DNA of 64,000 nt from an uncultured delta proteobacterium. GTDB taxonomy: Bacteria > Desulfobacterota > Desulfobaccia > Desulfobaccales > 0-14-0-80-60-11. Positions 2,839 to 57,625 of this stretch are shown in pieces; the stretch's first letter is position 1, and every line of letters starts with the position of its first letter. Both the position numbers and the translations under genes were made by a program. The DNA is taken from assembly GCA_963834795.1 (NCBI GenBank), contig CAWIDL010000021.1, forward strand, positions 134,243-198,242, in the 5' to 3' direction. Below the pieces are notes generated by a model. It did no database searches and was not told where the DNA came from. It saw nothing but the letters and a program-made list of their open reading frames with translations.

Positions 2839-3454
2839 TGCGCTTCCTCAAAAACGAGACATTTCTGCCGCATTTTGGTAAGTATTGGGCCCTGAGAATA
2901 TTCTGGACCCCCCCCTGGCCAGGACGGGTCACCGCCCGGATATCTGCCAGATGGTCACCTGGCTGGCCGGCCCTTGCCACCAGCGCCGCAGACTGGCCGA
3001 AGGTGAGATTTTTTAGGGTATTTCGGCATATTCGACAAGCAAAGTAGCCTTGGTTTTTGAAATAGTGCTGCTGAAAACTGCTGGATTTGTGGTGGTCCAC
3101 AAGGTATTAATGATAGCGAGACGGTTATCCTCAGGGTTAAGTCTCATGGCGAACTTATCCATTACATTGGCTCCAAACTCAAGAAAATCGGCCCTTCCGG
3201 CAATGCCGCTGAACGGTAAAAAGAGGCGGTGCGGTATTTATTGGACATAATCACTGCATTGGGTGGAGCTTTTTTCCGGAGGTAGAGCATTGATTGCAAC
3301 TCATTCGGGGAGAAGCTGACCTTTGCCGCCAGGACGATGACACGCAACGTCCTGATCAGCCGGTCGCTTTCCGGACAGGCCAGCACGGCATCCATGACTA
3401 CCCGTAATTTTTTCATAGACTTTATAAATACGCAAGAGCGATAATGTAATTCAC

Positions 3455-4099
3455 ATGCGATACTTTACTCAAAGCCGATTCCCTCGCCTTTGGCTCCTTT
3501 TTCAGAAGACCATTGGAGGAACAGTTGACAAGCAGAGACTTGCTGTACGCGCATGGAAAGGAGAAAAACGTATCCTTGAAGTCGGATGCTCTGTGGGCAA
3601 TGTTTCCGATGCGTTCCGGCGCTTTCCAGATGTTCAATTCACGGGGGTGGACATTGATCGCGTTGTCCTAGAAGTTGCCATTTCGCGTTTTGCCGACTGT
3701 AAGGGTTGGCGCTTCTTGAATGTTTCATTGGCCGATCTTCGCAACTGCGGAGAAACATTTGACTATATTTTATTCGCAGGGATATTCCATCATGTGGATG
3801 ATGCGGTAGTTCGTAATTTGTTAGCTGATGTGCAACGAATTATACTTCCTCACACTAAGATTGTCATATATGATCCGGTGGCGCCTCGATCTGACGATTC
3901 TTTTCTTGTTAAGTTGTATTACCGATTAGAAGAAGGTCGATTCCTCCGCCAACATACCGCGTTACGTCATCTTATTAAAGAGAGTGGTCTTATGATTCGC
4001 AAGGAGGAAGAAGATGTGCCCATTGCGCCATCAATTTTTCGTTTGCCACAAGTGAGCCGGTTTTCCTACTTTGTCGCATGCGGACAAAATCCTCTTTGA
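3455..4099 (+). CDS. class I SAM-dependent methyltransferase
   Basis: 214 aa with motif I ILEVGCSVGNVS and FAGIFHHV. It lies in a lower-GC stretch. Confidence 0.7.
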   Translation: MRYFTQSRFPRLWLLFQKTIGGTVDKQRLAVRAWKGEKRILEVGCSVGNVSDAFRRFPDVQFTGVDIDRVVLEVAISRFADCKGWRFLNVSLADLRNCGETFDYILFAGIFHHVDDAVVRNLLADVQRIILPHTKIVIYDPVAPRSDDSFLVKLYYRLEEGRFLRQHTALRHLIKESGLMIRKEEEDVPIAPSIFRLPQVSRFSYFVACGQNPL

Positions 4100-4166
4100 G
4101 TCATGCTTTGTCCGCATTCTAGCTGATGAAGGCACTCAGTTTGTTGTCCACCGAGGGCAAGTGCGC

Positions 4167-5102
4167 TCATGAGACTCCCCGCTGGCGCAACCACAAATCG
4201 AGAAAGGCGCTGGCGATGGCAGGCGCATCCAACCCGGCAAAAGTTAAGAGCTCGCTGCGGTTCAGGCAGGTCTTGGGATAGCCGAGGGGAGCACACAAAC
4301 AGCGCATGGGGTTGCCCAGACCGTGTTCGGCGATAAACAGGGCAATCCTTTGCCCCAGCCCGCCGGATTGAATGTGCTCCTCGGCGGTGACTACGGGGAT
4401 GCCCCCCGCCAGGATTTCGGCAAGGGTCTCGGCATCTAAGGGTTCGGTAGTGGGAAAATGGACCACCGCAGGCGCCACGCCCTCGGTTTGAATGGTTTCC
4501 ACGGCCCGCAAGACTTCGCTCAATAAAAAGCCATTGGTGATTATGACTCCTTCCCGGCGGTTGGGGCGAACGAAGGCCCGCCAGGGTGAAATAGTCTCCC
4601 TGGGATCGCGCAACACCGGCTCGCCATTCCGGCCAAGCCTCAGATAGGCAGGGCCGGTGAGATCAGGAGCCGCGCGGACGCAAGCTTGGACCTCCAAAGG
4701 ATCGGCCGGGGTCCATACGGTCATGTCCGGAATGGCGCTCATAAGGGCCAGGTCTTCCAGCCCGAAATGGGTGGGGCCATTGTGCCCATAACAATAGCCG
4801 CCGCCGACCCCGACCACAATCACGCGGCTGCGATTGTAGGAAAGGCTGATCTTGATCTGTTCCAGACAACGCAGGGTCACGAAGGGGGCGATGGAGTAAG
4901 CAAACGGGAGATGTCCGGCATGGGCCAGCCCGGCCGCGCAACCAATCATCAGACCTTCCCGCACGCCGACGTTGATGACCCTCTTGGGGTCGCAGGCTTT
5001 GAGGCGATCAAAAAGCTTATATCCCAGATCACCGGTAAGAAAGACTACCCGCCGGTCCGCCTCGAAGAGGTCGAAGAGCGCGGCGAAGAAGGCATCACGC
5101 AC
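4167..5102 (-). CDS. transketolase, C-terminal (pyrimidine-binding) subunit
   Basis: Homology-like sequence starts at VRDAFFAALF...FLTGDLGYKLF...GVREGLMIGCAAGLA. The GTG at 5102 overlaps the stop of the upstream subunit. The 451-aa track ORF has a spurious N-terminal extension. Confidence 0.85.
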   Translation of the reverse strand: MRDAFFAALFDLFEADRRVVFLTGDLGYKLFDRLKACDPKRVINVGVREGLMIGCAAGLAHAGHLPFAYSIAPFVTLRCLEQIKISLSYNRSRVIVVGVGGGYCYGHNGPTHFGLEDLALMSAIPDMTVWTPADPLEVQACVRAAPDLTGPAYLRLGRNGEPVLRDPRETISPWRAFVRPNRREGVIITNGFLLSEVLRAVETIQTEGVAPAVVHFPTTEPLDAETLAEILAGGIPVVTAEEHIQSGGLGQRIALFIAEHGLGNPMRCLCAPLGYPKTCLNRSELLTFAGLDAPAIASAFLDLWLRQRGVS

Positions 5103-6039
5103 GTAACAGACTCCGCCGGGCGCGTTCTCGGTCGGCACCCCTGACCGGGCGGTAATGCCACTCCAGATCACCCTCCATAAAGTTGACGCCGCCTCCTTTA
5201 ATGGTTCGGCAGAGGACCACCCGCGGCTGGCCGGGGGCGTTGGCCCTGGCAAAGCTGTCCACCAGAGCCTGAAAATTGTGGCCTGCCTGTATTTCGGTTT
5301 CCCACCCGAAGCCGGACCATATGGAAGGTAAAGACAGTCCCGGCGAGATGTCCTCGCAGCGGCCGCAGGCCTGATAGCCATTCCAGTCCACCAGAGCGGT
5401 AAGATTGTCCAGCCCATGGGCCTTGGCCGCGGCGGCCGCTTCCCACACCGAGCCTTCATCGCATTCGCCGTCACCCAACAGCACGAAAACCCTGGCCGGC
5501 AATGACTTGAGCCGCAAGCCATAAGCCAGCCCCACGCCGAAGGACAATCCGTGCCCGAGGCTGCCCGCGGCCAGTTCCACTCCGGGCAACTCCCCGGGCA
5601 TGGGATGTTCGGCCAGGCAGCACGTGCTCTCGCAGTAGCGCTGCAACAAGGCCGGATCGAAGAAGCCGGCCCGGGCCAGCACGGCGTAATGGGCCATGGC
5701 TGCGTGTCCCTTGGAGAGAATGAAGCGGTCTCGATCCTCGGCCTGATACTTAGCCGGAGAAATGTTCAGGGCTCCGAAGTATACGGCGGCTATCATATCG
5801 ATACATGACAGTGCGGAGGCCACATGCCCGGACCTCTGGGCCATGTCGACCACATCCCAGCGCAGCATCCGCAAGCATTCTTCGGGGTTACGCTGCATGT
5901 CTGTATACATGGAACCTCCCGGCGGCACGCTGGCCGTCCTCATCCAGGCCGATATCAAGTTGACCCTGGCCACAGGAATGCTTGAGGCGACCTTCTGCAG
6001 CTTGTCAGCGGGGAGCCAGTTGTTCCTTATGGCAAGCAC
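5095..6039 (-). CDS. transketolase, N-terminal (TPP-binding) subunit
   Basis: 314 aa with LSKGHAAMAHYAVLA, GSLGHGLSFGVGLA and VLLGDGECDEGSVWEAA. Confidence 0.9.
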   Translation of the reverse strand: MLAIRNNWLPADKLQKVASSIPVARVNLISAWMRTASVPPGGSMYTDMQRNPEECLRMLRWDVVDMAQRSGHVASALSCIDMIAAVYFGALNISPAKYQAEDRDRFILSKGHAAMAHYAVLARAGFFDPALLQRYCESTCCLAEHPMPGELPGVELAAGSLGHGLSFGVGLAYGLRLKSLPARVFVLLGDGECDEGSVWEAAAAAKAHGLDNLTALVDWNGYQACGRCEDISPGLSLPSIWSGFGWETEIQAGHNFQALVDSFARANAPGQPRVVLCRTIKGGGVNFMEGDLEWHYRPVRGADRERARRSLLRA

Positions 6040-14726: not shown

Positions 14727-14980
14727 TTAGCGTGGGTAGAGGCTGAGTCCCCCGCAAAAGAAATAGATGGCGGTTTTGAAATGCTCTTTGTTTCTATAGC
14801 CACAGGCCCGGCGCTTGATGGCCATGATCTTTCATAAAAGGAGATTATATGGCAACCTTGGTCACCGTGCTCAAAACATGGTTGTGGGACCTTGCGTCCA
14901 GGGAACAATTCTAAAAAGGTCTCTCTTCTTTCGGCCAAATCATCTTGTGGGAGCCAGGATAGCACAAATTTCCATCAAAT
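14727..14980 (-). pseudogene. ISL3-family transposase remnant
   Basis: Frame at 14727-14831 reads [34 protein letters not shown], the characteristic ISL3 transposase C-terminus. The upstream part is frame-broken or deleted. Confidence 0.65.
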
Positions 14981-15695: not shown

Positions 15696-16697
15696 ATGTC
15701 TTCTTTCAGGTCTTGGCATTTTGTTTTGGGGAAACTGACCTTAAGCAAGTTCCTCCAGATGAAGTTCAACAATTTTCTTTTCCGGTTTCTGCCCTTCTTC
15801 CTTTCCCGGTGGTACATCGCCTGCATGGGCCGCTTTTACTACCTGCTGAACTGGCGGGATAAGGCCCTGATCGCCAAGACCATCCGCCACGTTCTCCACG
15901 GCAGGATATCCTCCGAGGAGGTCCACCAGAAGACCAAAGGGGCCTTTGGGGGGATCTTCGACCATTATCATGAAAAACTCTTCGTCGGATATTCCAACTT
16001 TCCTAAGTTACTGGATTTCTTCAGGACCCAGGTATGTTTCCAAGGTGAGCAAAAGCTAAAGGAAACCCTGGCGGCCAGCAAGGGCGCCATTCTGGTAACC
16101 GGTCATTTCGGAGCGGTGGAATTACTGCCGGGCACCCTGGCGGTACACGGCTTCCCCACCTCCATGATCTGCCGCTTCCAGACCAACCGACTCCGGGAAG
16201 CCCTGGGTCGCCGGGCCGAATGGATCGGCTTGCACCTGATCGACGCGGATCAAGGGAACAGCTTCCTCGCCGCGGTAAAGGCCCTCAAAGCGGGGAGGAT
16301 CCTCATCACCGAGTGCGATGAATTCGATGAATGGCGACCGGACCCGAACCAGGGAACCTCCTTTCTCGATCGCCGACTTACGGGGGACCGCACCTTGGAC
16401 ATTTTGAGCAAGCGCTCCGGCGCCCCGGTGGTCGCCGCCATGGTGAAACGAGATGGGGGGCAACAATATACCTGTCACCTCACCGCGCTGGACAATGGCG
16501 CCGCTCCGGTAAATATGTCTATCAGCCAAAGGTGTCTCATGATCCTGGATGGTTCGGTGAAGGCCCATCCGGAGCAATGGTATCAATGGAAGAAGTTTGG
16601 TAAACTGATCAACATTGACCCGGGGGTGGGGCATGATCGTCCGAAAGCTGGATATTTGGCACCTAGAATTGGCATTTCTCTACCCGATCAGGCATAA
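15696..16697 (+). CDS. lysophospholipid/lipid A (LpxL/HtrB-family) acyltransferase
   Basis: HX4E motif in GAILVTGHFGAVELLPG and C-terminal HPEQWYQWKKF. The ATG at 15696 has AGGAGG about 9 nt upstream. Confidence 0.8.
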   Translation: MSSFRSWHFVLGKLTLSKFLQMKFNNFLFRFLPFFLSRWYIACMGRFYYLLNWRDKALIAKTIRHVLHGRISSEEVHQKTKGAFGGIFDHYHEKLFVGYSNFPKLLDFFRTQVCFQGEQKLKETLAASKGAILVTGHFGAVELLPGTLAVHGFPTSMICRFQTNRLREALGRRAEWIGLHLIDADQGNSFLAAVKALKAGRILITECDEFDEWRPDPNQGTSFLDRRLTGDRTLDILSKRSGAPVVAAMVKRDGGQQYTCHLTALDNGAAPVNMSISQRCLMILDGSVKAHPEQWYQWKKFGKLINIDPGVGHDRPKAGYLAPRIGISLPDQA

Positions 16698-35806: not shown

Positions 35807-35882
35807 CGGTCCCATCGTCTAGCGGCCAAGGACACCGCCCTCTCACGGCGGAGACACGGGTTCGATTCCCGTTGGGACTACC
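35807..35882 (+). tRNA. tRNA-Glu (anticodon CTC), CCA encoded
   Basis: 76 nt. Acceptor GGTCCCA/TGGGACT, anticodon stem CCGCC/GGCGG with loop CTCTCAC, T-arm ACGGG-TTCGATT-CCCGT. Confidence 0.95.
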
Positions 35883-36071
35883 AAAATCGTCCTTAACCTG
35901 CTTAAATTACTAAAGATAATTTTCAGAGACCCCCGAACGTTTCACCTTTCCGTCCACCTCCAGCAGCGCCTGACCTGCCCCCCAAAAACTGGTCCAAATA
36001 TTAAGTTAGAGATAAGCAAACCGATTCGAGTGGCGCGAGAAATGTCACCGCCTCCCCGCCTTAAGCAGCTA

Positions 36072-37184
36072 GTACTTAGTTGCATAAATCAGAGATACGA
36101 TTAGCCAAGCCTTTGGGATAAACATACCTTTTCCGCCATTGAAACGGTGCGGCTTGTGGATTGTAAGCCTGGACGAATTTATCGATAGCCTTCCTGACTT
36201 GTTGGGGGGAGGTGAAATTAGCCCCTTTGAGGGCACCGCGGCTGAGGATGCTGAACCAAACCTCGATTTGATTAAGCCAAGAGGCAGAAGTTGGAGTGTA
36301 ATGGAATTTAACCTGGGGATGCCTCTTCAACCACATATCGTTTTTGGGCTTATGGGTATTGAGGTTGTCTAAAATCACATGGAGTTCCTGATCAGGATAG
36401 TCAGCCAATATCTGGTTCATGAAGTCCAGAAATTCCACCCGCCGCCGTCGGTTATAGTGACCGGCTTTTACCTGACCGGTAGTCACTTCCAGGGCGGCAA
36501 ATAACGTGGTGGTGCCATGCCGCTTGTAACCGTGACTGAACCCCGTCAAGGTCTTGCCATTGGGAAGTTTCAGCCATCCCTGCGCTCTTTCCAGGGCCTG
36601 AATCTGGGGTTTTTCATCCACACAGATGACCACGGCGTTCTCCGGCGGGTCCAGGTAAAGTCCCACAATGTCCGCAGCCTTGCGGGCAAACTCGGGATCG
36701 GTGCTGACGCACCAGCTCCGGCGGCGTTCAAGACTGATGTTATGGCGCCGCAGGATGCGCCAGACCTGATGCTTGGTAACGTCACCCAAGGCTTCGGACA
36801 GAAGCCTGCCGTTCCAGCGGGCATAGCCTTCGGGAGGCGGTTCGTCCAGTTTTCTCAGCACCCGTTTTTCCGTGTCCTGCCTGTAGCTGCTGGGCTTCCC
36901 CGGTCTTTGGGCATCTTCCAAACCGGCCAGGCCTTCGCTGGCAAAGCGGGTCCGCCACTTGCTGACGGTGTTGGGGCGAACCTTCAAGTCCTTGGCAATG
37001 CCGCTGGTTTTTGCTCCCTGCGCCGCCGCCAAAATAATGCGAGCCCGCAGAACCTGGCGCTGTTCAGTTTTACTGTTACGTATCCTGGATTCGAGAATCC
37101 TACGGTCATCATCCGTCAATTGAATTTGAGTCGCTCTCATAATCGAGAGCCTATCATATATCGCTAATTAAAGCAACTATATAC
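36072..37184 (-). mobile_element. IS630-family insertion sequence (copy 2, different lineage from copy 1)
   Basis: TIRs GTACTTAGTTGCATAAATCAG (36072-) versus the reverse complement GTATATAGTTGCTTTAATTAG (-37184). TA duplications lie at 36070-36071 and 37185-37186. Length 1,113 bp. Confidence 0.85.
36076..37140 (-). CDS. IS630-family transposase
   Basis: 354 aa, intact, with N-terminal HTHs (RILESRIRNSK..., IAKDLKVRPNTVSKWRTRF) and the DDE core (VICVDEKPQIQALE, HVILDNLNTHK, TPTSASWLNQIE). Confidence 0.95.
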   Translation of the reverse strand: MRATQIQLTDDDRRILESRIRNSKTEQRQVLRARIILAAAQGAKTSGIAKDLKVRPNTVSKWRTRFASEGLAGLEDAQRPGKPSSYRQDTEKRVLRKLDEPPPEGYARWNGRLLSEALGDVTKHQVWRILRRHNISLERRRSWCVSTDPEFARKAADIVGLYLDPPENAVVICVDEKPQIQALERAQGWLKLPNGKTLTGFSHGYKRHGTTTLFAALEVTTGQVKAGHYNRRRRVEFLDFMNQILADYPDQELHVILDNLNTHKPKNDMWLKRHPQVKFHYTPTSASWLNQIEVWFSILSRGALKGANFTSPQQVRKAIDKFVQAYNPQAAPFQWRKRYVYPKGLANRISDLCN

Positions 37185-37309
37185 TAGACTGGCTCTATGC
37201 CAATAGAAGATTACTTGCCAAGAGCTACCCTTATCGGTGGTGGGGGAAAAATTCCAGATATGATTTGGCTAGCGAATTGGGGCTTTGGTGGAGGATTCAA
37301 GATTATTAC

Positions 37310-37353
37310 AAACAAAAGGCCGGTGGGTTTCATTACCACCGGCCCTTCTTTTC
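37310..37353. terminator. bidirectional rho-independent terminator
   Basis: Stem GGCCGGTGG/CCACCGGCC (37318-37326 / 37336-37344) with a 9-nt loop. T-runs occur on both strands (CTTCTTTT and, on the minus strand, TTTTGTTT). Confidence 0.55.
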
Positions 37354-37518
37354 AGGTTAGGCGTTCAGGAGCGCCCGAACCGCTTTAACCGCCCTCAGCC
37401 TCCCGGCGCTGTTCCTCCTGTTCCCGTTTCGCCGCCTCTCTCTGGCTGGCGAGAAAACAATCCTTCCCTCGTATGGGGCTGCCATCGACCAGGGTGATCC
37501 TAAGTCGGATGATTAATG

Positions 37519-39012
37519 CTAAAATAGCTCCGGGCCTTTCACTATGGGCTTCCCCGCCGCTCCGGCGATGGCTTCTAACATGCCCCGATAAACCCAGTGG
37601 TGGAAGGGAACCAGGCTATACCAGTAAACTATGCCTGCCAAGCCCCGGGGTAAAAATCTCGCGGTTTGTTTAAGTTCCACCTTGCCGTCTCCTTGCGGGG
37701 TGAGGTGAAACTCCAGGACTGCCTCCCCAGGCAGTTTCATTTCGGCCAGCAATAAGAGGCGACGTGGCGGTTCCACCTCCAGGACCCGCCAGAAATCCAG
37801 GGCGTCTCCCGGCCGGAGTTCCTGGGGATGGCGCCGGCCACCTCTAAAACCGATGCCGCCCAGGAGCCGGTCTATCCAGCCCCGCAGCCGCCACAAATAG
37901 TTGCCGAAATAGTAGCCGGTCTCTCCGCCCATCCTGATGATGGGCTGCCAGACGTCTTCGGGAGTAGCTTGTATCTGGACAGAGTAGCCGCACTCCAGAA
38001 TGGTGCCGCCGGCATAAGTGGTATCGCCACAGTAGGTCCATTCCGGGGGAATGGCGCCTCCGGCATCCATCCAACAGGTGTCGATTTGCTGCTGCTTCAG
38101 CCGTTCCAGCGCCAGCCGGATGGTTTGGCGGCAATCCAAAAGCTCTTGGGGAATAATGGCCCGGATGCGATTGTCCTTGCAAACTACAGGGTTACGAAGC
38201 CCCTCGGCCAGGGGCCTGGCGATGCTCGCCGGGACCGGGGTGATCAGGTGGATCCAGTAAGAGCTCAGGGTGGGAGTCAGGACTGGCACCGGGATGATGA
38301 GTCGGCGAAGAAGATGGGCTTCTTCTGCATAAATGTCGAATAAGTGCCGGTAGGTCACCACCTCCGGGCCGCCGATGTCGAAGGTTTGCCCTCGGGTTTC
38401 TTCATGTTCCAGGCAGCCTTGCAGATAATTGAGCACATTGCGGATGGCAATGGGTTGCACCGGGTTGTGAACCCAGCGGGGGGTTAGCATGACCGGCAGG
38501 CGGTCCACCAGATAGCGCAGAATTTCAAAGGAAGCGCTTCCCGAACCCAGAATCATCGCGGCCCGAAGGAAGGTGACCGGCACCGGACCGGATTGCAGGA
38601 TTTGGGCCACTTCATGTCGGGAGCGGAGATGCTTGCTCAGGAGGGGGTCCTCCGTGCTACCTAATCCGCCCAAGTAAATGATATGTTCCAGTCCGGCCCC
38701 GGCCGCAGCGCGTACCATATTTTGGGCCGCCGTGCGGTCAGTCTCGGTAAACCCCTTGGAGTCGGCCCCCATGGAATGGACCAAATAAAAGGCCGCCCGA
38801 CAGCCTTCCATCGCTTTTCGTAAAGATTCATAATCCAGTACATCAGCCGCGGCCAACTCCGCCAGTGGATAGTTGGCCCAAGGTCGGGCTTTCAACTTGG
38901 CTATCGATCTCCCCAGAGCCCGCACCCGGTAACCCGATCCCAGAAGTTTGGGTACCAGTCGGCCCCCTACATATCCAGTTGACCCAGCAACCAGCACAGG
39001 TTTGGTCGTCAT
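37519..39012 (-). CDS. SDR-family NAD(P)-binding protein with DUF2867-type C-terminal domain
   Basis: 497 aa with VLVAGSTGYVGGRL (Rossmann). The C-terminal half matches my recollection of the DUF2867/SRPBCC-like module commonly fused to NmrA-like SDRs. Confidence 0.85.
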   Translation of the reverse strand: MTTKPVLVAGSTGYVGGRLVPKLLGSGYRVRALGRSIAKLKARPWANYPLAELAAADVLDYESLRKAMEGCRAAFYLVHSMGADSKGFTETDRTAAQNMVRAAAGAGLEHIIYLGGLGSTEDPLLSKHLRSRHEVAQILQSGPVPVTFLRAAMILGSGSASFEILRYLVDRLPVMLTPRWVHNPVQPIAIRNVLNYLQGCLEHEETRGQTFDIGGPEVVTYRHLFDIYAEEAHLLRRLIIPVPVLTPTLSSYWIHLITPVPASIARPLAEGLRNPVVCKDNRIRAIIPQELLDCRQTIRLALERLKQQQIDTCWMDAGGAIPPEWTYCGDTTYAGGTILECGYSVQIQATPEDVWQPIIRMGGETGYYFGNYLWRLRGWIDRLLGGIGFRGGRRHPQELRPGDALDFWRVLEVEPPRRLLLLAEMKLPGEAVLEFHLTPQGDGKVELKQTARFLPRGLAGIVYWYSLVPFHHWVYRGMLEAIAGAAGKPIVKGPELF

Positions 39013-39034
39013 CAGATACCCCAGTGAGACCCAT

Positions 39035-39400
39035 TCAGAGCCATATCCTGTCTAACGCGCCACCGGGATCAGCACCTCGTCGGAGCAGGAACCAGGGCAT
39101 GAAAGGTGGATTGTACCTGGCAAAGACAGGCTCATCCGTTATTTTTAGACCCCTTTGCCGAATGAGTTCCTTGAACCGACTCTCCTTTTCCTCATAGCGC
39201 TCCCTGTCAGCCAGATCTGCCCAGTAGGCTACCTGGTCTCCCATGACTTTGGACTCCACTTCGGTCATGTTCTGAGTAAAGCTTGGCCTGGGAGGATTGA
39301 GCCTGCATAAGAAATACTTCATCTCCCTATCATTGGGGCGGGAAAAATTGCGGATATGATCTGGATAGGGGAGGTTTTCAGGGTCTTGATAAGTTCCCAT
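39035..39400 (-). CDS. hypothetical protein (possibly YciI/dimeric alpha-beta-barrel-like N-terminus)
   Basis: 121 aa. KYFLCRLNPPRPSFTQNMTEVESKVMGDQVAYW resembles YciI-like proteins, but the C-terminus diverges. Confidence 0.5.
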   Translation of the reverse strand: MGTYQDPENLPYPDHIRNFSRPNDREMKYFLCRLNPPRPSFTQNMTEVESKVMGDQVAYWADLADRERYEEKESRFKELIRQRGLKITDEPVFARYNPPFMPWFLLRRGADPGGALDRIWL

Positions 39401-39499
39401 TCATAGCAGTTATCTTTATCGTCAAGTTAACTGCCCGGCCACGCATTGAGAAGCCCGGTGCAGCACTTTGTTGGGCAGTATCATTAGCCGAAAACACAA

Positions 39500-41077
39500 T
39501 TATAAAACATCGGTTAGCGCATCCAGTTTTTCAAGAAGCGGTAGCACACAACGATTCCGAAGAGCATTCATTATATCTTTTGTGATAACCTTTGTCTTCT
39601 GGATATCACCCCATTGCTCTCGAAGGTCAATACTGCCAATCGTGCTTGAAATACCGACCAATCCTTCGGCTCCTTTGTCATCAAGGATGACAGGGATTAT
39701 GTGCTCTTTACGACCTGATTGGGTCATAATGTCCTTTTCGTATTTGGTCCATACCTTGTCCCGGTAGTTTTGGTCAAGAAAGGCGAGATAGTATCGGCAT
39801 GATTCAGCATAGATGCGTCCTAACGTTTGTTCCAAATCTAAAGCAAGCAAGAAAGCCTGCTGATCGTAGTCATAAAACGTTACAACATCTTCGGACTTGA
39901 GCTCTGAGTTGACAGCCTCAACAATCTGCCTTGCCTCTCCAGCGAATGAGAATCCTACATCGTAGGAGAAAACTTTTGAGCGTTCTACGCTCTCATTTTC
40001 GATGCCTAGGTCTCGGTAAAGATCCTTCGACTCGAGGTAAGATAGGAAATACCGAAAGAGCGGATCTTCGATAGAGAAGCCACCTTCGGGATCGAAAGCA
40101 ATCTGCTTTCTGAGATCAACTTGCTTCAGGGGATCGAAAATCACTTCGGCAATGCGAGGACGTATTGCTTTGATTCCTGGCTTCCGACGATCTGGAACCA
40201 TGTTTAATATCTTATCGTAAGTTACAACTGAGTCGGGTATCCGGCATACTGCTAGCAGTACCTCGAGATAAGGTTTATTTCCGCCAGGCCGCCATTTCTT
40301 GCCCTTGGCGAAAGTCCTTGCGATGGGCATGTACCGCTGCAAAAGCTCGGTCATCAAACGCTGCCGTATTGATAGAAGATCGAATGTTAATATCTTTACA
40401 TCTTCTTGGGTCTCAAATACTTCTTGCGAAGAACAGATCTTGTTGCAGATATATTGAGCAAGCCAAAAGTTTCCCGCACTCTCACTCAGCAAGATATCAC
40501 GGTCTTCGAATATAATATTTAGAGCTTGTTCCCCTGCATCAATCAGGCGGTCGATTTCTCTGTCCTTGGCTTTTGGGAAGCGATAGTTTCCAAGCCTGGG
40601 TCCGAGGTCATAGGCATCAGAAAGTAACGATAATCCAGTTGTTGGAATCCCAATTAAAATGGTTTTCGGCGGCGACGCCTGCTCAAAAGCACGATCGCTT
40701 AAGCGCTTGAGGCTTGCTCCAATTTCTGCTCGTTTTTGGGTTGTAATGAGATGAAAATCATCAACAACAATTATTGGAGGGGCTGGCCGGGTGCTACAAC
40801 TGGTGGTTTCAAAAAAAAGGTTAATCTGGTTCTCAGCATCGTCATCGCGGCAACTAATGTAATTGTAGTCAAGGTCTTTTTGCCAACCCAGTTCTTCAAA
40901 GACTTTGTAGACTATGCAAGTCTTGCCTATTCCAGAGGGACCTTCGATCAGGAGATGTTTGCCCGGCTGCTCAATGTCGGCGCGTACCTCTCCGTAATAG
41001 GAGGGCTTGACGTAGGTATAAGGCGGTAAACCCACGGTTTTAAATACCTCTGTCAGCTGTCTCTTTTCCAACATCAT
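39500..41077 (-). CDS. P-loop ATPase fused to C-terminal TIR domain
   Basis: Walker A LIEGPSGIGKTCIV and Walker B PIIVVDDFH. C-terminal TIR: YDVGFSFAGEAR...VTFYDYD...YYLAFLDQNYRDKVWTKYE...IIPVILDD. The ATG at 41077 is preceded by GGGAGA; the track's GTG alternative is at 41092. Confidence 0.8.
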   Translation of the reverse strand: MMLEKRQLTEVFKTVGLPPYTYVKPSYYGEVRADIEQPGKHLLIEGPSGIGKTCIVYKVFEELGWQKDLDYNYISCRDDDAENQINLFFETTSCSTRPAPPIIVVDDFHLITTQKRAEIGASLKRLSDRAFEQASPPKTILIGIPTTGLSLLSDAYDLGPRLGNYRFPKAKDREIDRLIDAGEQALNIIFEDRDILLSESAGNFWLAQYICNKICSSQEVFETQEDVKILTFDLLSIRQRLMTELLQRYMPIARTFAKGKKWRPGGNKPYLEVLLAVCRIPDSVVTYDKILNMVPDRRKPGIKAIRPRIAEVIFDPLKQVDLRKQIAFDPEGGFSIEDPLFRYFLSYLESKDLYRDLGIENESVERSKVFSYDVGFSFAGEARQIVEAVNSELKSEDVVTFYDYDQQAFLLALDLEQTLGRIYAESCRYYLAFLDQNYRDKVWTKYEKDIMTQSGRKEHIIPVILDDKGAEGLVGISSTIGSIDLREQWGDIQKTKVITKDIMNALRNRCVLPLLEKLDALTDVL

Positions 41078-41351
41078 ATTTCTCCCAAACACGCCACCCA
41101 GCGCGAACCGTTCTTCCCGAGGTTAACCCCGAGAAGATTCCTCTTTTTGTGGCCAAATTGTCTTGTGGAGGGCATGATAGCACAAATTTTGAATGGCAAG
41201 GTATCTTTTTTGAGAATTGGCCTTACCAACCTCTTCCATAATTAGCGATCACTTGCCATGATCGGCTCTCATCGTAGGAGCGGTGAAAATACGAGATATG
41301 ATCTAAATTTCTATAACTACCATTTCAAAACGGTTCGAGGCATCGCCAAAC

Positions 41352-42524
41352 CTATTTGGCTTCAATAAGTTCCTCTCGCTCTAGCACACGACGAACTTCT
41401 TCGAAAACTGCTTTTATGTCTCCCTTGGGGAAGCGAATCTGCCCCAGGCCCTCGATATTGCTGAACTCCTCGCAACCTTCCTCCAGTAGTATGATAGCTC
41501 TTGAAAATCCAAGACGTCCTTGAAACAGGCCTGCCTCGTGAACAACATTCATTCGCGCATGATGCTTCCCGTCAGCTTGCTCATCCTCCCCAGTCATGAT
41601 CAAAAAAGCAATAGCCGCGGCATCAAGCATCTCAGAAAGACGTGCAATATTCGTTAGCCCAGCGACAGGCACTCGATTGAACTCGTCCCAGGGCAAGCGC
41701 AATCGGTCCTGGACGAAGTCTTTCAGCTCCCGCCAGATCGGGGAACGTCCGTGTCCGATAAAGACGTTCGTGCCTATCTCCCGTGAACGTTTGGATCGTC
41801 TCTGTTGCCGAGCGAGGTGCGAACCGGCCTTCTGTGCGAGCTGAGCCAAGCGACTGCAGGCGGCTGGTGCTTGCCTGAGGGTGGTGACCTCAGAGAGGAC
41901 TAAAAGGTGGGGCGGCACCTGAAGACCTTGTGTTACAGCCATGGAGTCTCTCGACATCAACGGTCTAGAAGGCAATAACTGATGAAGCACTTGATCTTTT
42001 GACTGGATAGCTGCCTGTTCTACCTGCTCCCTGAGAGACGTGATGAAGGGGTCCTCTCGTTCAGCCAGAGCCGTAGTCAAAATGGATAGTATATCCGGCT
42101 TGCTACTCTGGAACGAGCTTTCTGCACTGGACGCCAGGTGTCGGGCCGGTCCCAGGTCCGGGTTCCCTGCGATTTCGTATATCGTCCTCTCGATATCGTC
42201 GGGATCGTACTCGACCCACTCACCCTCTGTTGCTACGACTGGCCATACGCCCTTCATCCCCCATTCTGGGCTGAAATGGGCCTGCGGCGGGGGCGGCTTG
42301 AGATCCTTGTAGTAGATTCGGGCATGATATCCGAGGCAGGAGCCACTCCAGGCCTTCCTAACGCTAGCAGCTGCCTCCTCCAGACGCTCCAACGGTTCTT
42401 TTACTTCGGGAGCGGTGGCCTTCTGCGACAGGTCCCCGAGCCTCTCGGCAATCTCAAACAGTTCTTCGCTATGGTCACTTGTTGCCATCACGGTAGCCGT
42501 CTCCCTTCCGTCCTCTGATGTCAT
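41352..42524 (-). CDS. protein with unknown N-terminal domain and C-terminal TIR-like domain of the Cap12/Pycsar-effector type
   Basis: 390 aa. The last ~135 aa (NVFIGHGRSPIWRELKDFV...AIAFLIMTGEDEQ...HARMNVVHEAGLFQGRLGFSRAIILLEEG...SNIEGL) follow the pattern of the 'predicted nucleotide-binding TIR-like' family. Confidence 0.75.
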   Translation of the reverse strand: MTSEDGRETATVMATSDHSEELFEIAERLGDLSQKATAPEVKEPLERLEEAAASVRKAWSGSCLGYHARIYYKDLKPPPPQAHFSPEWGMKGVWPVVATEGEWVEYDPDDIERTIYEIAGNPDLGPARHLASSAESSFQSSKPDILSILTTALAEREDPFITSLREQVEQAAIQSKDQVLHQLLPSRPLMSRDSMAVTQGLQVPPHLLVLSEVTTLRQAPAACSRLAQLAQKAGSHLARQQRRSKRSREIGTNVFIGHGRSPIWRELKDFVQDRLRLPWDEFNRVPVAGLTNIARLSEMLDAAAIAFLIMTGEDEQADGKHHARMNVVHEAGLFQGRLGFSRAIILLEEGCEEFSNIEGLGQIRFPKGDIKAVFEEVRRVLEREELIEAK

Positions 42525-42536
42525 GGATATTAAGAA

Positions 42537-43112
42537 TCACATGATACATAGCCCCTTGATGGGTTCATATTCGCCTTTTTTAATAGTCATAAAATTCTTT
42601 GCTATTGGATAACAACCCGCAATGCAATTAGTTAACTTTGACATATTGGACAGAGACAAACGAGCTTGCAGAACAAGGTTTTCAAAGGTATCAATGTCGT
42701 ATTTTAACTGTTTAGTAGCTGATCCAGTTTTCTTTTTATGCAGCTTTTGACCAAGAGCAATTGCTTGTTTCCTTCCTTCCAGTTCTTGCTCAATTAAAAA
42801 CCATTTTACATGTAGCAGGTTATTTCTATCTGGAATCAATTTTTGAAAAGTCGAAAATACATAATCGATTATTTTAGCGGTTTCGGCATCTGGTTTCAGG
42901 TGCTCATAACATAAGCTATGAAACAAAGCCCTTAGAGGTTCAGCTGTCAAGTCAGCTAACAAGATTTCTTGAACTCGGTCACTCTTGAGCCCTTCCATTG
43001 TAAGGATGGACCTAATCCCACTCTCCATCGTTTGGCAAACTTGCTCAAACTCAACGACAAATTTTCCAATGTTTCCATAAATGGAAGATATATTTTTTTC
43101 TTTCTCAGCCAT
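42537..43112 (-). CDS. HEPN-like protein (Rx4H motif)
   Basis: 191 aa, AT-rich, predicted helical, with an R-x4-H motif in LIPDRNNLLHVKW. It ends 12 nt before the next gene. Confidence 0.5.
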   Translation of the reverse strand: MAEKEKNISSIYGNIGKFVVEFEQVCQTMESGIRSILTMEGLKSDRVQEILLADLTAEPLRALFHSLCYEHLKPDAETAKIIDYVFSTFQKLIPDRNNLLHVKWFLIEQELEGRKQAIALGQKLHKKKTGSATKQLKYDIDTFENLVLQARLSLSNMSKLTNCIAGCYPIAKNFMTIKKGEYEPIKGLCIM

Positions 43113-43274
43113 GGCTATTCAGACCAGCGCACATAAGTAATCCGGGGTATAATAGGAAGGTCTATGCGTACTAGCTTGCCAAAAAAGAAATTATCCTCAA
43201 TCTCCAAAAAATTTCAGATATGGTTCGGATATGTTGAATTTCGGGAACTACCGCGCCTTTATCCATCCATGTAT

Positions 43275-43913
43275 TTAGACAAATCTCATCCCCAGGGATA
43301 GGGCCTTCTCACAATCCTTAGGAAAGACCTCCTGGCGCCTCCTGGTCTTCTTCTCTGGATCAAAGCGGTCCGCCACCACTTTGCTATAATCCTTAAACTG
43401 ATAAGTATCAAAACTGCAGAGTGACTCCGAAGCCCCGAACACCATCTGCAACAGCCTTTGATTATTATCAAAGAACTGCTGATAACCCCATTCTTTCATC
43501 TGCTCTTCTGTGACATTCATCGTATAAATAAATCCCGTAGGAATTTTTTTGGGGAAAAGCGACTGCGGCGGGTCCGTATAGGTAAAATAGGGAAACAGCA
43601 AACGCTCCATAAACGAGCGCATCTCTCCCGACACATTGCCGAAATAGATGGGGGAGCCCAAAATTAAGGCATCGACCGCCTCAATTTTTTTAAAGATCGG
43701 GCGCAGATCATCCTTGACGGCACACCTGCCATAACTTTTGCCGCCTCTGATCTTACAAGCAAAGCAGCTCGTGCATCCGGTAAATTTCAGATCATATAAA
43801 TGGATGAGTTCGGTTTCAGCCCCCTTAGAGGCGGCTCCTTTAAGGGCTTTCCCTATCAGGGTAGCCGTATTCCATCTCTTTCTTGGGCTGCCGTTAACTG
43901 CCATGACCTTCAT
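43275..43913 (-). CDS. flavodoxin-like fold FMN reductase / iron-sulfur flavoprotein family
   Basis: Start set at MKVMAVNGSPRK (GGAGGGA upstream). Motifs CTSCFACK and LILGSPIYFGNVSGEM. The 322-aa track ORF is over-extended. Confidence 0.8.
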   Translation of the reverse strand: MKVMAVNGSPRKRWNTATLIGKALKGAASKGAETELIHLYDLKFTGCTSCFACKIRGGKSYGRCAVKDDLRPIFKKIEAVDALILGSPIYFGNVSGEMRSFMERLLFPYFTYTDPPQSLFPKKIPTGFIYTMNVTEEQMKEWGYQQFFDNNQRLLQMVFGASESLCSFDTYQFKDYSKVVADRFDPEKKTRRRQEVFPKDCEKALSLGMRFV

Positions 43914-44128
43914 AACGCATCCCTCCATCTTTCCTATGTTGCTCCCCTTGAAGCTGAAAAATAAAACTAAATGAATATAATTCCGGTTAATTTTTGGGGG
44001 GACATGGTTTAAACCAAGATGGGCATTTATCAACCATGGCCTTGCCCTCAGCCAGATTGGCATGGCGGCGCTCTCGTATGTCGACCCGCCATCCGTCAGC
44101 GCAAGGCCGGGGTATGGGCCGAGAAAAA

Positions 44129-44773
44129 TCAGTAGCCCAGATCTTCGCCCACCAGCTTTACATGGATACGGTTTTCCAGCATGTGCCCTTCGATGATGGA
44201 CCACATATAGCAAATCCGCTCGGGGCTCTTGCAGTCCGAGCATAGGCCCGTTTCGACACAGGGGGTGGCTCGGCTAAGGCGGATGGCGTTGATGGGGGCG
44301 GCGTGGTGTTTCACCCGGGCCATGGCGGTTTCCAGGTCCGGGGCCACCTTGTTGAGACCCACCGCCAGGATGACCTTTTTGGGTCCGAAACACATGGCCG
44401 CCACCCGGTTGCCCATCCCGTCCAGGTTCACAAGTTTGCCGTCCAGGGTCAAGGCGTTGGTACTGGTGAGAAAAAAGTCGGCCAAGAGCGACTGGCGGCG
44501 CCGCTCTTGCGCTACCTCCGGGGCCAAACCCGGGAGGAAAGGGTCAATCACCTCCACCCCGGGTTTGTGGGCCAGGGCCTCCCAAAGGCCCATCTCCACC
44601 ACCGACATGGAACCGCCCCGGCTGACGGTGGCCCCGGCGGGAATCATGGCCAGGATTTCGTCCCGAGCCTGGGCCGCGGTAGGGGCGTAGCTAGCCTCCA
44701 GCCGCCGCCTGGTGAGTTGTTTGATCAGGTGTTCCGCCAGCTTTTCCCTGTAGGTGATCTGATGTCTGTCCAT
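44129..44773 (-). CDS. LUD-domain (lactate-utilisation-like, DUF162) protein
   Basis: 214 aa with FLTSTNALTLDGKLVNLDGMGNRVAAMCFGPKKVILAVGLNKV and a C-terminal Cys motif CSDCKSPERIC. Confidence 0.85.
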   Translation of the reverse strand: MDRHQITYREKLAEHLIKQLTRRRLEASYAPTAAQARDEILAMIPAGATVSRGGSMSVVEMGLWEALAHKPGVEVIDPFLPGLAPEVAQERRRQSLLADFFLTSTNALTLDGKLVNLDGMGNRVAAMCFGPKKVILAVGLNKVAPDLETAMARVKHHAAPINAIRLSRATPCVETGLCSDCKSPERICYMWSIIEGHMLENRIHVKLVGEDLGY

Positions 44774-45275
44774 GAGTTCTCATTTCTGGGAGATTTTTCT
44801 GTAACCTGCTACCAGCAGTTATACCAGGTTTTAAGTTAGGATAGGGTTCAAGTCAAGCCAGAGATGGTTTGACAAAGGTAAAGCGAAAATCTGGGACACG
44901 AAAGTTTCTAGAACTTGCCAATATCCGCTCTCCTGAGATCTTTGTATATAATTCGAATATGGAAATCTCTTAAAATGAAAAGCCCTGGGTTGAAATCCCC
45001 AGGGCTGCAAATGAGCTTTTACTTGATCCAAACTCTCAAATTTGAAATCAAACCGGCAAGAATACATGGCGAAATTTTCGCCAGTTTTGACTCAGATGTC
45101 GAAAGGCCTTCTGTCCAAGCCCTTGAAATTATTAGGCATGTAGATGCCAGTTTTTACAGGAAAAAGTCCCGTTGGGACTACCATGTGGCCAAGCCTGCCG
45201 CATAATCTCGGATTAAACGAGTTCATTGCACCAGGCAATGGCCTCCTCGTTGGAGAATCACTTCACATACGTCGT

Positions 45276-56846: not shown

Positions 56847-57625
56847 CGATCAGTGCTGGCCTGGGGTCCTTAAGCTCCATCGCAGTGAGGTGTCTGGGTT
56901 CTGATGGTTTGGTATGCCAAAATTTCTGGAAAAATTACTATATCCGGCAGATTGGTTGACAAATTCATTGAAATTTATGCTATCATTGCTGTCACCCGAC
57001 AATTCGGCTGCAAAAGAGGATGCTTCTCGGGGTTAAACTCGGGGAGATGACTCCACAAAACCGTTTTTTGACCGCGGTGGCCCAGGCTGCCGCATAATCT
57101 CAGATAATAAGGACCAGGAAAGGAGGTCAATAAAATGGACCAACCGATGTGTGTGCGCATTCTAATGACCATATGGCCAAAAAAAGGCCAAGCAGCGATG
57201 CGAAAGCATTGGCTGCGGGAAGGGGTTCGGTATTTCAAGGATGGGAAACCAGAAAAAGCAATAGCCACATTATATAATGTGACCAGTTCTCAGCGGGGCC
57301 CAGAGGACCAAGCGGGTCAAGCAGCATACTGCACGGCAGTCTATTATTCAGGGCTGGCCTATGCAGCTCTCGGGGACCTGGATTCTGCATGGGAGTGCTA
57401 TAGCGTTGTCAAAGACCTGAATCCTCCTAATAAAGAAATAGTGGAGGACCTTCGTGTAGCGATTGAAAAGAGTTAAGCGTAAGGGGCCATAAACGGGGAT
57501 TTGGGTCCTGTGGCCCCCATCAGTACTAACTACCATCTCTTGCTTCAGACAATCTTGAAGCAGGGTCGTGGCAATATCTACAGGGGCCATGGCGTACAAG
57601 TGGCGGACAAAATTTTAGAGGCCCC
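55558..57625 (+). mobile_element. 2,068-bp insertion: IS1380-family transposase gene plus a passenger TPR ORF
   Basis: Bounded by the 10-bp direct repeat GGTTAAAAGG (55548-55557 and 57626-57635). Removing it restores a continuous 464-aa PhoH2 frame. I could not identify terminal IRs. Confidence 0.7.
57135..57476 (+). CDS. small TPR-like protein (passenger in the insertion)
   Basis: 113 aa with AGGAGG 7 nt upstream. TPR-like: GKPEKAIATLYNV...YYSGLAYAALGDLDSAWECYSVVKDLNP. Confidence 0.55.
   Translation: MDQPMCVRILMTIWPKKGQAAMRKHWLREGVRYFKDGKPEKAIATLYNVTSSQRGPEDQAGQAAYCTAVYYSGLAYAALGDLDSAWECYSVVKDLNPPNKEIVEDLRVAIEKS

Follow-up and report, generated by a model that had tools for sequence, protein, structure and literature searches.

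The three adjacent genes at positions 39500-43112 of the 64,000-nucleotide stretch of DNA analysed here (the window) are best explained as three single-gene modules that were acquired horizontally, independently of one another, and have accumulated side by side, and not as one three-component system; we give this reading a probability of about 0.7. It rests on the lack of co-occurrence of the three genes, on their three different GC signatures, on a 277-nt spacer that carries a host repeat, and on PADLOC matches to single-gene models. The genes are probably autonomous candidate abortive-infection modules, one encoding a putative HEPN RNase and two encoding putative sensor-TIR NADases. The analysis establishes which domains the proteins carry, which motifs are invariant, that each family stands by itself and how the island is built; a role in defence, the NADase and RNase activities and the triggers are inferred. 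The preliminary description of this DNA had proposed a single three-gene system with a new abortive-infection architecture, to be refuted, as fixed beforehand, if homologues did not co-occur elsewhere; in the loci examined they co-occur nowhere else, and the proposal was not supported. Adjacent same-strand genes that look immune are easily taken for a new multi-gene system, and a neighbourhood test can tell real systems from stacking in defence islands.

All three ORFs were confirmed on the minus strand. Gene 1 (42537-43112) encodes a HEPN-like protein of 191 aa. The longest ORF of gene 2 (41352-42524, 390 aa) was shortened to start at M13 (41352-42488, 378 aa), and that of gene 3 (39500-41092, 530 aa, GTG start) to start at M7 (39500-41074, 524 aa), judging by how long their homologues are (377-378 aa and 524 aa, respectively), by the gene calls in other assemblies and by ribosome-binding sites. 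The 12-nt gap first described between genes 1 and 2 therefore holds for the longest ORF only, and becomes 48 nt with the corrected start; genes 2 and 3 are 277 nt apart. With a gap of 48 nt and no predicted terminator between them, genes 1 and 2 probably share a transcript at this locus, where a functional connection between the two is conceivable. An interspersed element specific to the host is present with its 5' part (41112-41189, minus strand) in the gene 2-gene 3 spacer, some 40-115 nt before the start codon of gene 3, and its core TGCTATCAT is similar to an extended -10 box. A full copy of this element is present at 56970-57109 and more copies are found in a related genome. Because the 277-nt spacer carries this host repeat with its promoter-like core, separate expression of gene 3 is likely.

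Insertion at a tRNA 3' end with a flanking direct repeat is the mark of a genomic island, and this arrangement was found here. The last 17 nt (35867-35883) of a tRNA-Glu (CTC) gene (35808-35883, plus strand) are repeated exactly at 45167-45183 on the plus strand (TCCCGTTGGGACTACCA), which forms an attR-like boundary, so that the direct repeat bounds an island of about 9.3 kb (35884-45183). The 17-mer has two matches in the window against 0.01 expected, none of 100 shuffles reached two, and the identity of the two copies stops sharply at both edges. ARAGORN and Pfam bore out the tRNA-Glu and IS630 context noted earlier: an IS630-family transposase gene with HTH and DDE_3 domains (36076-37140, minus strand) adjoins the tRNA gene. 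No integrase ORF was found between the 17-nt repeats, the IS630 transposase being the only such gene, and the island looks degenerate and mosaic. An SDR/DUF2867 gene block (37529-39158, minus strand) has 91% DNA identity to related Desulfobaccales, where it is found at a different, conserved chromosomal site. A block encoding an FMN-reductase and a LUD-domain protein (43218-44920, minus strand) shares about 96% DNA identity with related strains, where its location is different and genes 1-3 do not follow it. In blastn comparisons with the loci of relatives, homology ended at 39158 and restarted at 43218-43228. The lineage-specific patch of 4.06 kb thus delimited (39159-43217) holds exactly genes 3, 2 and 1, and at the matching loci in related strains neither blastn nor gene maps revealed anything equivalent.

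The region had been described as AT-rich, which was upheld: 39500-43112 has a GC content of 0.470, the window as a whole one of 0.556, and a value this low occurs in only 0.3% of segments of the same size. The bias is not uniform, since gene 1 has a GC content of 0.368 and gene 3 of 0.453, while gene 2, at 0.550, is close to the window average. GC3 values were 0.34, 0.58 and 0.46 for genes 1, 2 and 3, respectively, compared with 0.57-0.79 for host genes. These three differing signatures point to three separate origins.

Recurrent adjacency across unrelated genomes is expected of a multi-gene system. The neighbourhoods examined were 35 gene 3 loci (12 genomes at 57-74% identity with flanks of up to 10 kb, one megaplasmid and 22 viral contigs), 98 gene 2 loci (80 metagenome loci at 43-86% identity, one plasmid and 17 viral contigs), and about eight independent gene 1 contexts, including the closest relatives at 68%, 62%, 59% and 57% identity. 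Profile HMMs of all three families were run against every ORF of the first 150 loci, tblastn was also used, and the later gene 1 contexts were examined by HMM search and gene maps. Metagenome contigs were often short, with at least 700 bp upstream in 54 of the 80 gene 2 loci and at least 2 kb downstream in 30 of them. Among the first 150 loci, the HMMs found genes 1-3 together in only four contigs, all from the source organism, and the co-occurrence across genomes on which the earlier proposal depended was thus not borne out. In these 35, 98 and about eight contexts, no two of the families were adjacent outside the source organism, genes 2 and 3 were absent from the vicinity of the closest gene 1 relatives, and no conserved partner gene accompanied any of the three families in the loci examined. 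Their relatives were flanked by toxin-antitoxin genes, transposases or housekeeping genes. Such recurrent adjacency was therefore not found for genes 1-3, and the persistence of each family alone elsewhere indicates that each is self-sufficient.

Gene 2 ends in a TIR domain of the Cap12/Pycsar type (about 41430-41768, minus strand; residues 253-365), which matched PF10137 (CAP12-PCTIR_TIR) above the curated cut-off with an E-value of 2e-19; nothing upstream of it could be assigned by Pfam, in agreement with the initial reading. This domain aligns with Cap12 (7un8/9lmq) by sequence and by fold, and its fold also matches TIR-STING, SARM1 and SPARTA. The Glu of the NVVHEAG motif, aligned to the VVFEFG motif of Cap12, is invariant in the family. 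The TIR fold and the conserved catalytic Glu that characterise TIR NADase effectors are thus both present. The remainder of the protein (about 41784-42488, minus strand), about 235-240 unassigned residues in all, comprises a highly conserved domain and a long helix of about 40 residues. The AF2 model of the N-terminal domain had a pLDDT of about 95 and gave no match in a fold search; the domain has a pocket-like appearance and carries the motif WSGSxLGYHA...FSxEWG. This conserved domain with no fold match is the most notable item of the locus. The family has thousands of members, and those from different bacterial phyla and from an archaeon are still about 60% identical; the closest relative (86% identity) stands alone, with RNase G on one side and SelB on the other. 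Gene 2 is thus best viewed as a stand-alone sensor-effector, with a predicted NADase activity.

Stand-alone TIRs were considered likely NAD+-depleting effectors in a 2025 survey (10.64898/2025.12.03.692087). The gene 2 family is cyclase-free, and no relative of its N-terminal fold could be detected; it would be a reasonable family in which to look for a new TIR NADase activation cue. Tentatively, this family by itself might be a new class of TIR immune sensors acting alone, with a novel N-terminal fold that would recognise a conserved small molecule as its cue, a reading that claims less than the single circuit considered below and is likelier. Sensor-TIR effectors that act alone are already an established kind of protein, as are HEPN RNases, so the gene 2 and gene 3 families would leave current concepts unchanged.

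The preliminary description assigned a Walker A/B ATPase and a TIR domain with a candidate catalytic Glu to gene 3, and both assignments stood. Pfam matched AAA (E 3.9e-6) in the P-loop NTPase region (about 40715-40954, minus strand) and TIR_2 (E 2.5e-9) at about 39614-39952 (minus strand), both above cut-offs; between them lies a conserved middle domain (about 39953-40699, minus strand). The motifs GPSGIGKT, IIVVDDFH, SFAGE and WTKYE were located at positions 51, 107, 382 and 448, respectively, of the protein. In the family alignment the Walker A GPSGxGKT, the DD of Walker B, W442 and E446 are invariant, which gives a TIR domain with a conserved Glu in W-x3-E spacing. Weak Pfam matches to nSTAND_NTPase5, nSTAND3, AAA_16 and NACHT were also obtained, the best matches among solved structures were classical AAA+ proteins of the Vps4 or RFC type (E about 1e-3), and the protein matched phrog_6841. 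We consider gene 3 a stand-alone sensor-effector, its family being a compact NTPase-gated TIR with a putative NADase activity. A distant relative, present as accessory cargo in a prophage contig, is a moron gene between the tail-completion and baseplate modules, and comparable layouts of neighbouring ORFs were seen again in several other viral contigs.

HEPN proteins are characterised by an Rx4-6H motif, and the R-x4-H reported in gene 1 is indeed present, as RNNLLH (42810-42827) within PDRNNLLH (residues 94-101). Across 100 diverse relatives of 20-50% identity, R96 and N97 never vary, and at least 90% keep H101. Gene 1 matched nothing in Pfam, NCBIfam or PHROG and itself passed no curated HEPN threshold. 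Its relatives gave sub-threshold matches to three Pfam HEPN families and to Csx1/CARF-HEPN models; HEPN_RiboL-PSP was matched by 11 of the 100 members (best E 2e-5) and HEPN_Cthe2314 by seven, and HEPN families were the top weak matches in two libraries. The AF2 model (pLDDT 89.7) shows a beta-sheet insert after the motif, and a Foldseek search found no fold match in the PDB. For the gene 2 TIR, which matches TIR-STING, the expectation that structure prediction would reveal a TIR fold was borne out. From its sequence, gene 1 is plausibly a HEPN protein, a minimal one with a putative RNase activity. Like Csx1/Csm6 HEPN domains, RiboL-PSP-HEPN proteins and the HEPN toxins of Abi and toxin-antitoxin systems, it has the R-N-x3-H motif, but it lacks a CARF domain, an MNT antitoxin or any other conserved partner.

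The genes were compared with known systems, and the other 58 ORFs of the whole window were scanned with PADLOC (E<=1e-5). No CD-NTase, pyrimidine cyclase or ThsA/ThsB was found, in agreement with the first description, which had also judged, correctly, that the locus does not match CBASS, Pycsar, Thoeris or Avs; these identities were rejected because there is no cyclase, no ThsA partner and no large STAND sensor. The gene 2 TIR belongs to the same subfamily as those of CBASS Cap12 and PycTIR and keeps the catalytic Glu, but CBASS needs a CD-NTase beside the effector, and none is present in the locus or window or conserved beside gene 2 relatives. With the NCBIfam Cap12 equivalogs gene 2 scores only 32 and 26 bits, the cut-off being 450, the alignment to Cap12 is limited to the TIR part, and the gene 2 N-terminal domain is neither STING nor that of PycTIR. 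Similarly, the Pycsar PycTIR model matches the TIR part only (profile positions 129-272 of 288, E 7e-9), and no PycC occurs in the locus, in the window or near gene 2 relatives. Thoeris shares TIR-domain proteins in a defence-type context; however, no SIR2/SLOG, Macro or any of about 29 newer Thoeris effector types was found beside the genes, which form no conserved two-gene operon. As in Avs and other STAND proteins, gene 3 combines a P-loop NTPase (hhhhDD Walker B) with a TIR, as a minimal NTPase-gated effector, but it is 524 aa long and lacks an array of repeats or sensors at its C-terminus, whereas Avs proteins typically exceed 1000 aa; its nSTAND and NACHT matches are all below cut-offs, and its TIR is C-terminal instead of N-terminal as in STAND/NLR-type NTPase-TIR proteins.

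No complete named system was identified. PADLOC matched genes 2 and 3 to unvalidated single-gene candidate models only, which agrees with the autonomy of the families: PDC-S35 matched the gene 2 TIR (E 2.6e-11, profile positions 99-237 of 264), leaving the N-terminal domain uncovered, PDC-S59 the middle region of gene 3 (E 3e-11, positions 155-333 of 428), and PDC-S66 its TIR (E 2e-6). Gene 3 thus joins features of two different candidates, and the S35 and S59 matches are partial, not full-length. This partial matching of candidate entries counts against the reading of three single-gene modules.

If the three genes are separate modules, each protein would most likely be kept inactive until its own sensor part meets an infection cue. 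Activation would then lead to oligomerisation, dependent for gene 3 on nucleotide binding or hydrolysis; both TIRs would hydrolyse NAD+, a HEPN dimer would cut RNA, and growth arrest or abortive infection would follow. Both TIR families are unusually conserved, with about 60-70% identity across phyla and, for gene 2, also in an archaeon. This is atypical for fast-evolving immune sensors and also counts against three immune modules. It would fit non-immune genes, acting either as toxins for addiction or stabilisation of the island or in housekeeping NAD or nucleotide signalling, and so would the frequent position of gene 3 relatives beside housekeeping genes and transposases, with no visible enrichment of known defence genes near close relatives. 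We nevertheless regard such roles as unlikely: none of the three genes has a conserved antitoxin-like partner beside it, their patchy spread by horizontal transfer over plasmids and prophages fits accessory defence cargo, as does the place of the distant gene 3 relative as a prophage moron, and known immune effectors have this architecture of a sensor joined to a TIR whose catalytic Glu is intact. Plasmid-borne relatives are found in TIR/TPR/DUF4231 and RES/NACHT regions, a context of the defence type. The three widespread single-gene families remain candidates for experiment.

Genes 1-3, or at least the close pair of genes 1 and 2, might form a lineage-specific system recently assembled in the Desulfobaccales lineage. 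The shared strand, the short terminator-free gap between genes 1 and 2, the joint filling of a single lineage-specific patch and the order 1-2-3, kept in four assemblies of the source organism, would all agree with this. However, the four assemblies represent one population and lend no independent support, gene 2 is frameshifted as read in one of them, the genes co-occur in no other genome or metagenome examined, and the three GC signatures and the solitary persistence of every family elsewhere make recent assembly quite improbable. A single circuit of cyclase-free, TIR-to-TIR signalling, in which an NAD-derived signal made by the ATPase-gated gene 3 TIR would act through the gene 2 N-terminal domain to switch on its NADase, with the co-transcribed HEPN protein as a second, RNA-targeting arm, is still harder to credit.

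TIRs of the Cap12/PycTIR type are normally ligand-activated effectors. Thoeris-like signalling in trans, with gene 3 producing an NAD-derived signal sensed by the conserved, pocket-like gene 2 N-terminal domain, is the least probable reading, as the genes that make and receive a signal normally lie close together whereas linkage was seen in 0 of 35 gene 3 loci and 1 of 98 gene 2 loci, ThsB models match only at E 0.027-0.034 (0.027 for gene 3), and the pairing is absent from the catalogue of a 2025 Thoeris survey. The one linked case, weak and frameshifted, is a metagenome locus (L047) in which a TIR-less cousin of the gene 3 ATPase lies directly upstream of a gene 2 relative.

The three minus-strand ORFs were found where the preliminary description had located them, together with every motif that it quoted: gene 1 (42537-43112, 191 aa), gene 2 (longest ORF 41352-42524, 390 aa) and gene 3 (longest ORF 39500-41092, 530 aa). 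Homologue lengths (377-378 aa for gene 2 and 524 aa for gene 3), the gene calls of other assemblies and Shine-Dalgarno-like sequences place the starts of genes 2 and 3 at M13 (42488) and M7 (41074) respectively. The true genes are therefore shorter, and the intergenic gaps are 48 nt between genes 1 and 2, instead of the 12 nt initially reported, and 277 nt between genes 2 and 3. The 3.6-kb stretch had been presented as the most AT-rich of the window; its GC content is indeed the lowest for its size (0.470 versus 0.556 for the window, a value matched by only 0.3% of windows of that size), but the composition is uneven, with 0.368 in gene 1, 0.550 in gene 2 and 0.453 in gene 3. The GC3 values (0.34, 0.58 and 0.46 in genes 1, 2 and 3, versus 0.57-0.79 in host genes) are distinct and argue for separate origins of the three genes.

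It had been proposed that these genes form one undescribed abortive-infection system, a view that a lack of co-occurrence elsewhere would refute. This was the key test here, and it came out against a single system: in the loci examined, relatives of the three genes were never found together outside this organism. Gene 1 has nine close relatives only; the families of genes 2 and 3 are both large, with full-length, highly conserved proteins present across distant phyla. First, no gene-1 or gene-2 relative was found within flanks of up to 10 kb of gene-3 relatives (57-74% identity) in any of 12 genomes, which include Planctomycetota, Acidobacteriota, Burkholderiales, Dokdonella, Azorhizobium and Solirubrobacteraceae. 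Second, neither gene 1 nor a true gene 3 was present beside gene-2 relatives (43-86% identity) in 80 metagenome loci, of which 54 extended 700 bp or more upstream and 30 extended 2 kb or more downstream; the closest of these relatives (86% identity) is inserted alone, with RNase G on one side and SelB on the other. The sample was widened by 39 viral-contig and three plasmid loci, and when profile HMMs of all three families were run on every ORF of 150 loci, the genes occurred together solely in four contigs, all from this same organism. Third, gene-1 relatives (68%, 62%, 59%, 57% and 42% identity, plus more distant ones) lie in unrelated contexts, for example Fic/ParA-like/AttH, RAMA/DUF4357, or the RES/NACHT/PAAR region of a Pantoea plasmid, and no gene 2 or 3 was seen near them in the contexts examined. 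The relatives at 62% and 59% share related AttH/ACPS neighbourhoods; the other contexts have no common neighbours. When the flanking ORFs were clustered, neither gene 2 nor gene 3 had another conserved partner. In conclusion, the autonomy of the modules and the conservation of their catalytic motifs are shown, and the best-supported reading is that genes 1, 2 and 3 are autonomous modules, the three-gene architecture not being a conserved entity.

A signalling pair in which gene 3 acts on gene 2 was considered; since these families show no linkage elsewhere, it was dropped as the main explanation. The sole hint of linkage came from one of 98 gene-2 loci (L047), where a 55%-identical gene-2 relative (3589-4779) has directly upstream a TIR-less cousin of the gene-3 ATPase and middle module (1888-3194); this ATPase is split, apparently by a frameshift, and covers the N-terminal two-thirds of gene 3.

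The earlier statement that the locus falls outside CBASS, Pycsar, Thoeris and Avs was correct. It differs from CBASS and Pycsar by the absence of a cyclase, from Thoeris by the absence of a ThsA-type effector and from Avs by the absence of a STAND-sized sensor, and none of these was found in the locus itself, elsewhere in the window or beside the relatives. A literature search on ATPase-TIR and HEPN-TIR proteins and on the PADLOC single-gene candidates PDC-S35 and PDC-S59 returned nothing relevant. The locus is an ordinary small defence-type island, its uncharacterised genes belonging to known kinds, and its overall interest is modest.

Gene 2 ends, as first described, in a TIR-like domain of the Cap12/Pycsar type (PF10137, residues 253-365, E 2e-19), and Pfam assigned nothing before residue 253. 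An AlphaFold model built from a 40-sequence alignment (mean pLDDT 81.5) predicts an N-domain (residues 1-235, pLDDT about 95) whose final helix, about 40 residues long, leads into the TIR. The TIR fold matched those of TIR-STING/Cap12, SARM1 and SPARTA; the N-domain had no fold match in PDB or BFVD, in agreement with the initial failure to assign it, and this conserved domain is the most worthwhile follow-up. By sequence, the TIR aligns with Cap12 (7un8) and keeps the catalytic Glu (VVFEFG in Cap12, NVVHEAG in gene 2), which is invariant across the gene-2 family. PADLOC matched only the TIR part of PDC-S35 and of PycTIR. Full membership of gene 2 in PDC-S35, like that of gene 3 in PDC-S59, was rejected because the profiles match only in part. 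Identity within the gene-2 family is about 60% across bacterial phyla, a Nitrososphaera archaeon included, which is unusual for immune-type genes. In one assembly of the same organism (L002, 6589-7753), gene 2 reads as two ORFs of 89 and 298 aa, the frame shifting past residue 58, which reflects either an allele in decay or an indel error of long-read sequencing. The 90%-identity cluster also holds many fragments. A 43%-identical relative lies in a Tn3-associated region of the Klebsiella variicola plasmid pKGB1a (21876-36985), where its neighbours are a TPR protein, a DUF4231 protein and a pair of short TIR proteins, so that TIR genes are stacked on this conjugative plasmid too.

The assignment of gene 3 as a P-loop ATPase fused to a TIR was borne out by AAA (E 3.9e-6) and TIR_2 (E 2.5e-9) matches in Pfam, and by the invariance of Walker A, the DD pair of Walker B and the TIR residues W442 and E446 in a 29-sequence alignment (71% mean column identity). 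The NTPase resembles classical AAA+ and STAND proteins only weakly; the gene-3 profile gave only generic AAA+ P-loop matches among PDB sequences, and the TIR alone gave only a weak match to Cat1 (E 0.36). The middle region matches PDC-S59 and phrog_6841. A distant relative (phrog_6841, 27-30% identity) is a moron gene in a P2-like prophage contig (L142, 3518-11278), with lysis and tail-completion genes on one side and baseplate genes on the other. This site looks like an accessory-gene slot, and three other viral contigs (L143, L146 and L150) resemble L142 in the layout of neighbouring ORFs. In a Bryobacterales locus (L023, 8710-12190), the gene-3 relative is broken between residues 287 and 289 by an insert of about 1.9 kb, probably an insertion sequence. 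The 71% column identity extends over Planctomycetota, Acidobacteriota, Proteobacteria and Actinomycetota, again unusual for immune-type genes. The high conservation of the gene-2 and gene-3 families points to a recent wide transfer or to a target under strong constraint.

Searches of Pfam, NCBIfam and PHROGs gave no match for gene 1, and its family profile matched nothing among PDB sequences. An exhaustive profile search gave 745 cluster representatives, most of them proteins of about 190 aa that stand alone; in 100 of these, R96 and N97 never vary and H101 is kept in 90% or more. Among the weak matches, HEPN families came up most often in each of two independent libraries: HEPN_RiboL-PSP (11 members, best E 2e-5), HEPN_Cthe2314 (7) and HEPN_MAE_28990 (1) in Pfam, and Csx1 (9 members, best E 6e-6) and CARF-HEPN models in PADLOC. 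Because the motif is conserved and HEPN families head the weak matches, gene 1 is probably a divergent, putative HEPN protein. The AlphaFold model is confident (pLDDT 89.7); in it the motif helix is followed by a beta-sheet insert, and Foldseek gave no match for the model in PDB.

Genes 2 and 3 would be sensor-effector fusions: oligomerisation and TIR NADase activity would be under the control of a sensing part, namely the N-domain in gene 2 and the NTPase with the middle domain in gene 3. Gene 1 would be a HEPN RNase, presumably acting as a dimer. We infer these activities, their triggers and a defence role from what is known of the Cap12/PycTIR, SARM1-type TIR and HEPN RNase families, from the mobile and prophage contexts, and from the present habit of regarding bacterial TIRs that stand alone as effectors that deplete NAD+ (10.64898/2025.12.03.692087). 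Known defence genes do not obviously surround the close relatives of gene 3; these contexts and the conservation of both TIR families call for caution on an immune role.

The tRNA-Glu gene and the IS630-type transposase reported earlier are both present. An exact second copy of the final 17 nt of tRNA-Glu (35867-35883) lies at 45167-45183, with sharp identity edges (0.01 matches expected by chance, two matches in none of 100 shuffles), and this direct repeat marks a tRNA-associated island of about 9.3 kb. The island is degenerate: it contains the IS630 element, which is its only mobile gene, the SDR gene, genes 3-1, and the FMN reductase and LUD genes, and no integrase was found in it. That the host is a Desulfobaccales bacterium is shown by the flanking SDR gene together with other neighbours. 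The SDR/DUF2867 block (37529-39158) and the FMN-reductase/LUD block (43218-44920), with DNA identities of 91% and about 96% respectively, match blocks at two separate conserved chromosomal sites in related Desulfobaccales strains, so that the island also holds host genes that were translocated or copied. Because these genes, which flank the insert on its two sides, lie at two different loci in relatives, a clean empty-site comparison was impossible, and homology breakpoints were mapped instead. The 4.06 kb between the blocks (39159-43217), exactly genes 3, 2 and 1, have no counterpart in related strains; the island is therefore a mosaic, with the three genes as lineage-specific cargo.

Rfam detected no known RNA in 39000-43600, and a promoter and terminator scan gave a signal not above chance, taken only as a weak hint. 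An intergenic, host-specific interspersed element of about 140 nt has its 5' part in the spacer between genes 2 and 3, just upstream of gene 3. Full or partial copies lie at 41112-41189 (minus), 56970-57109 (plus), 45187-45209 (plus) and 14841-14863 (minus) in the window, and at 1592-1718, 5685-5827 and 15977-16269 in a related genome (L156). The core of the 5' part, TGCTATCAT, resembles an extended -10 box, and this promoter-like sequence suggests that gene 3 may be transcribed on its own. The 3' part (GGCCAAGCCTGCCGCATAATCTC) lies 3 nt past the distal att-like repeat. The element had no Rfam match; a promoter cassette, a leader RNA and a MITE are candidates.

Among the other 58 ORFs of the window, PADLOC matched mad2 (two ORFs, one at 12-767, minus strand), PD-Lambda-3_B (E 8e-149), Aga_HEPN (1e-13), PD-T4-6, SduA, PDC-M51A and SoFic; some of these may be housekeeping look-alikes.
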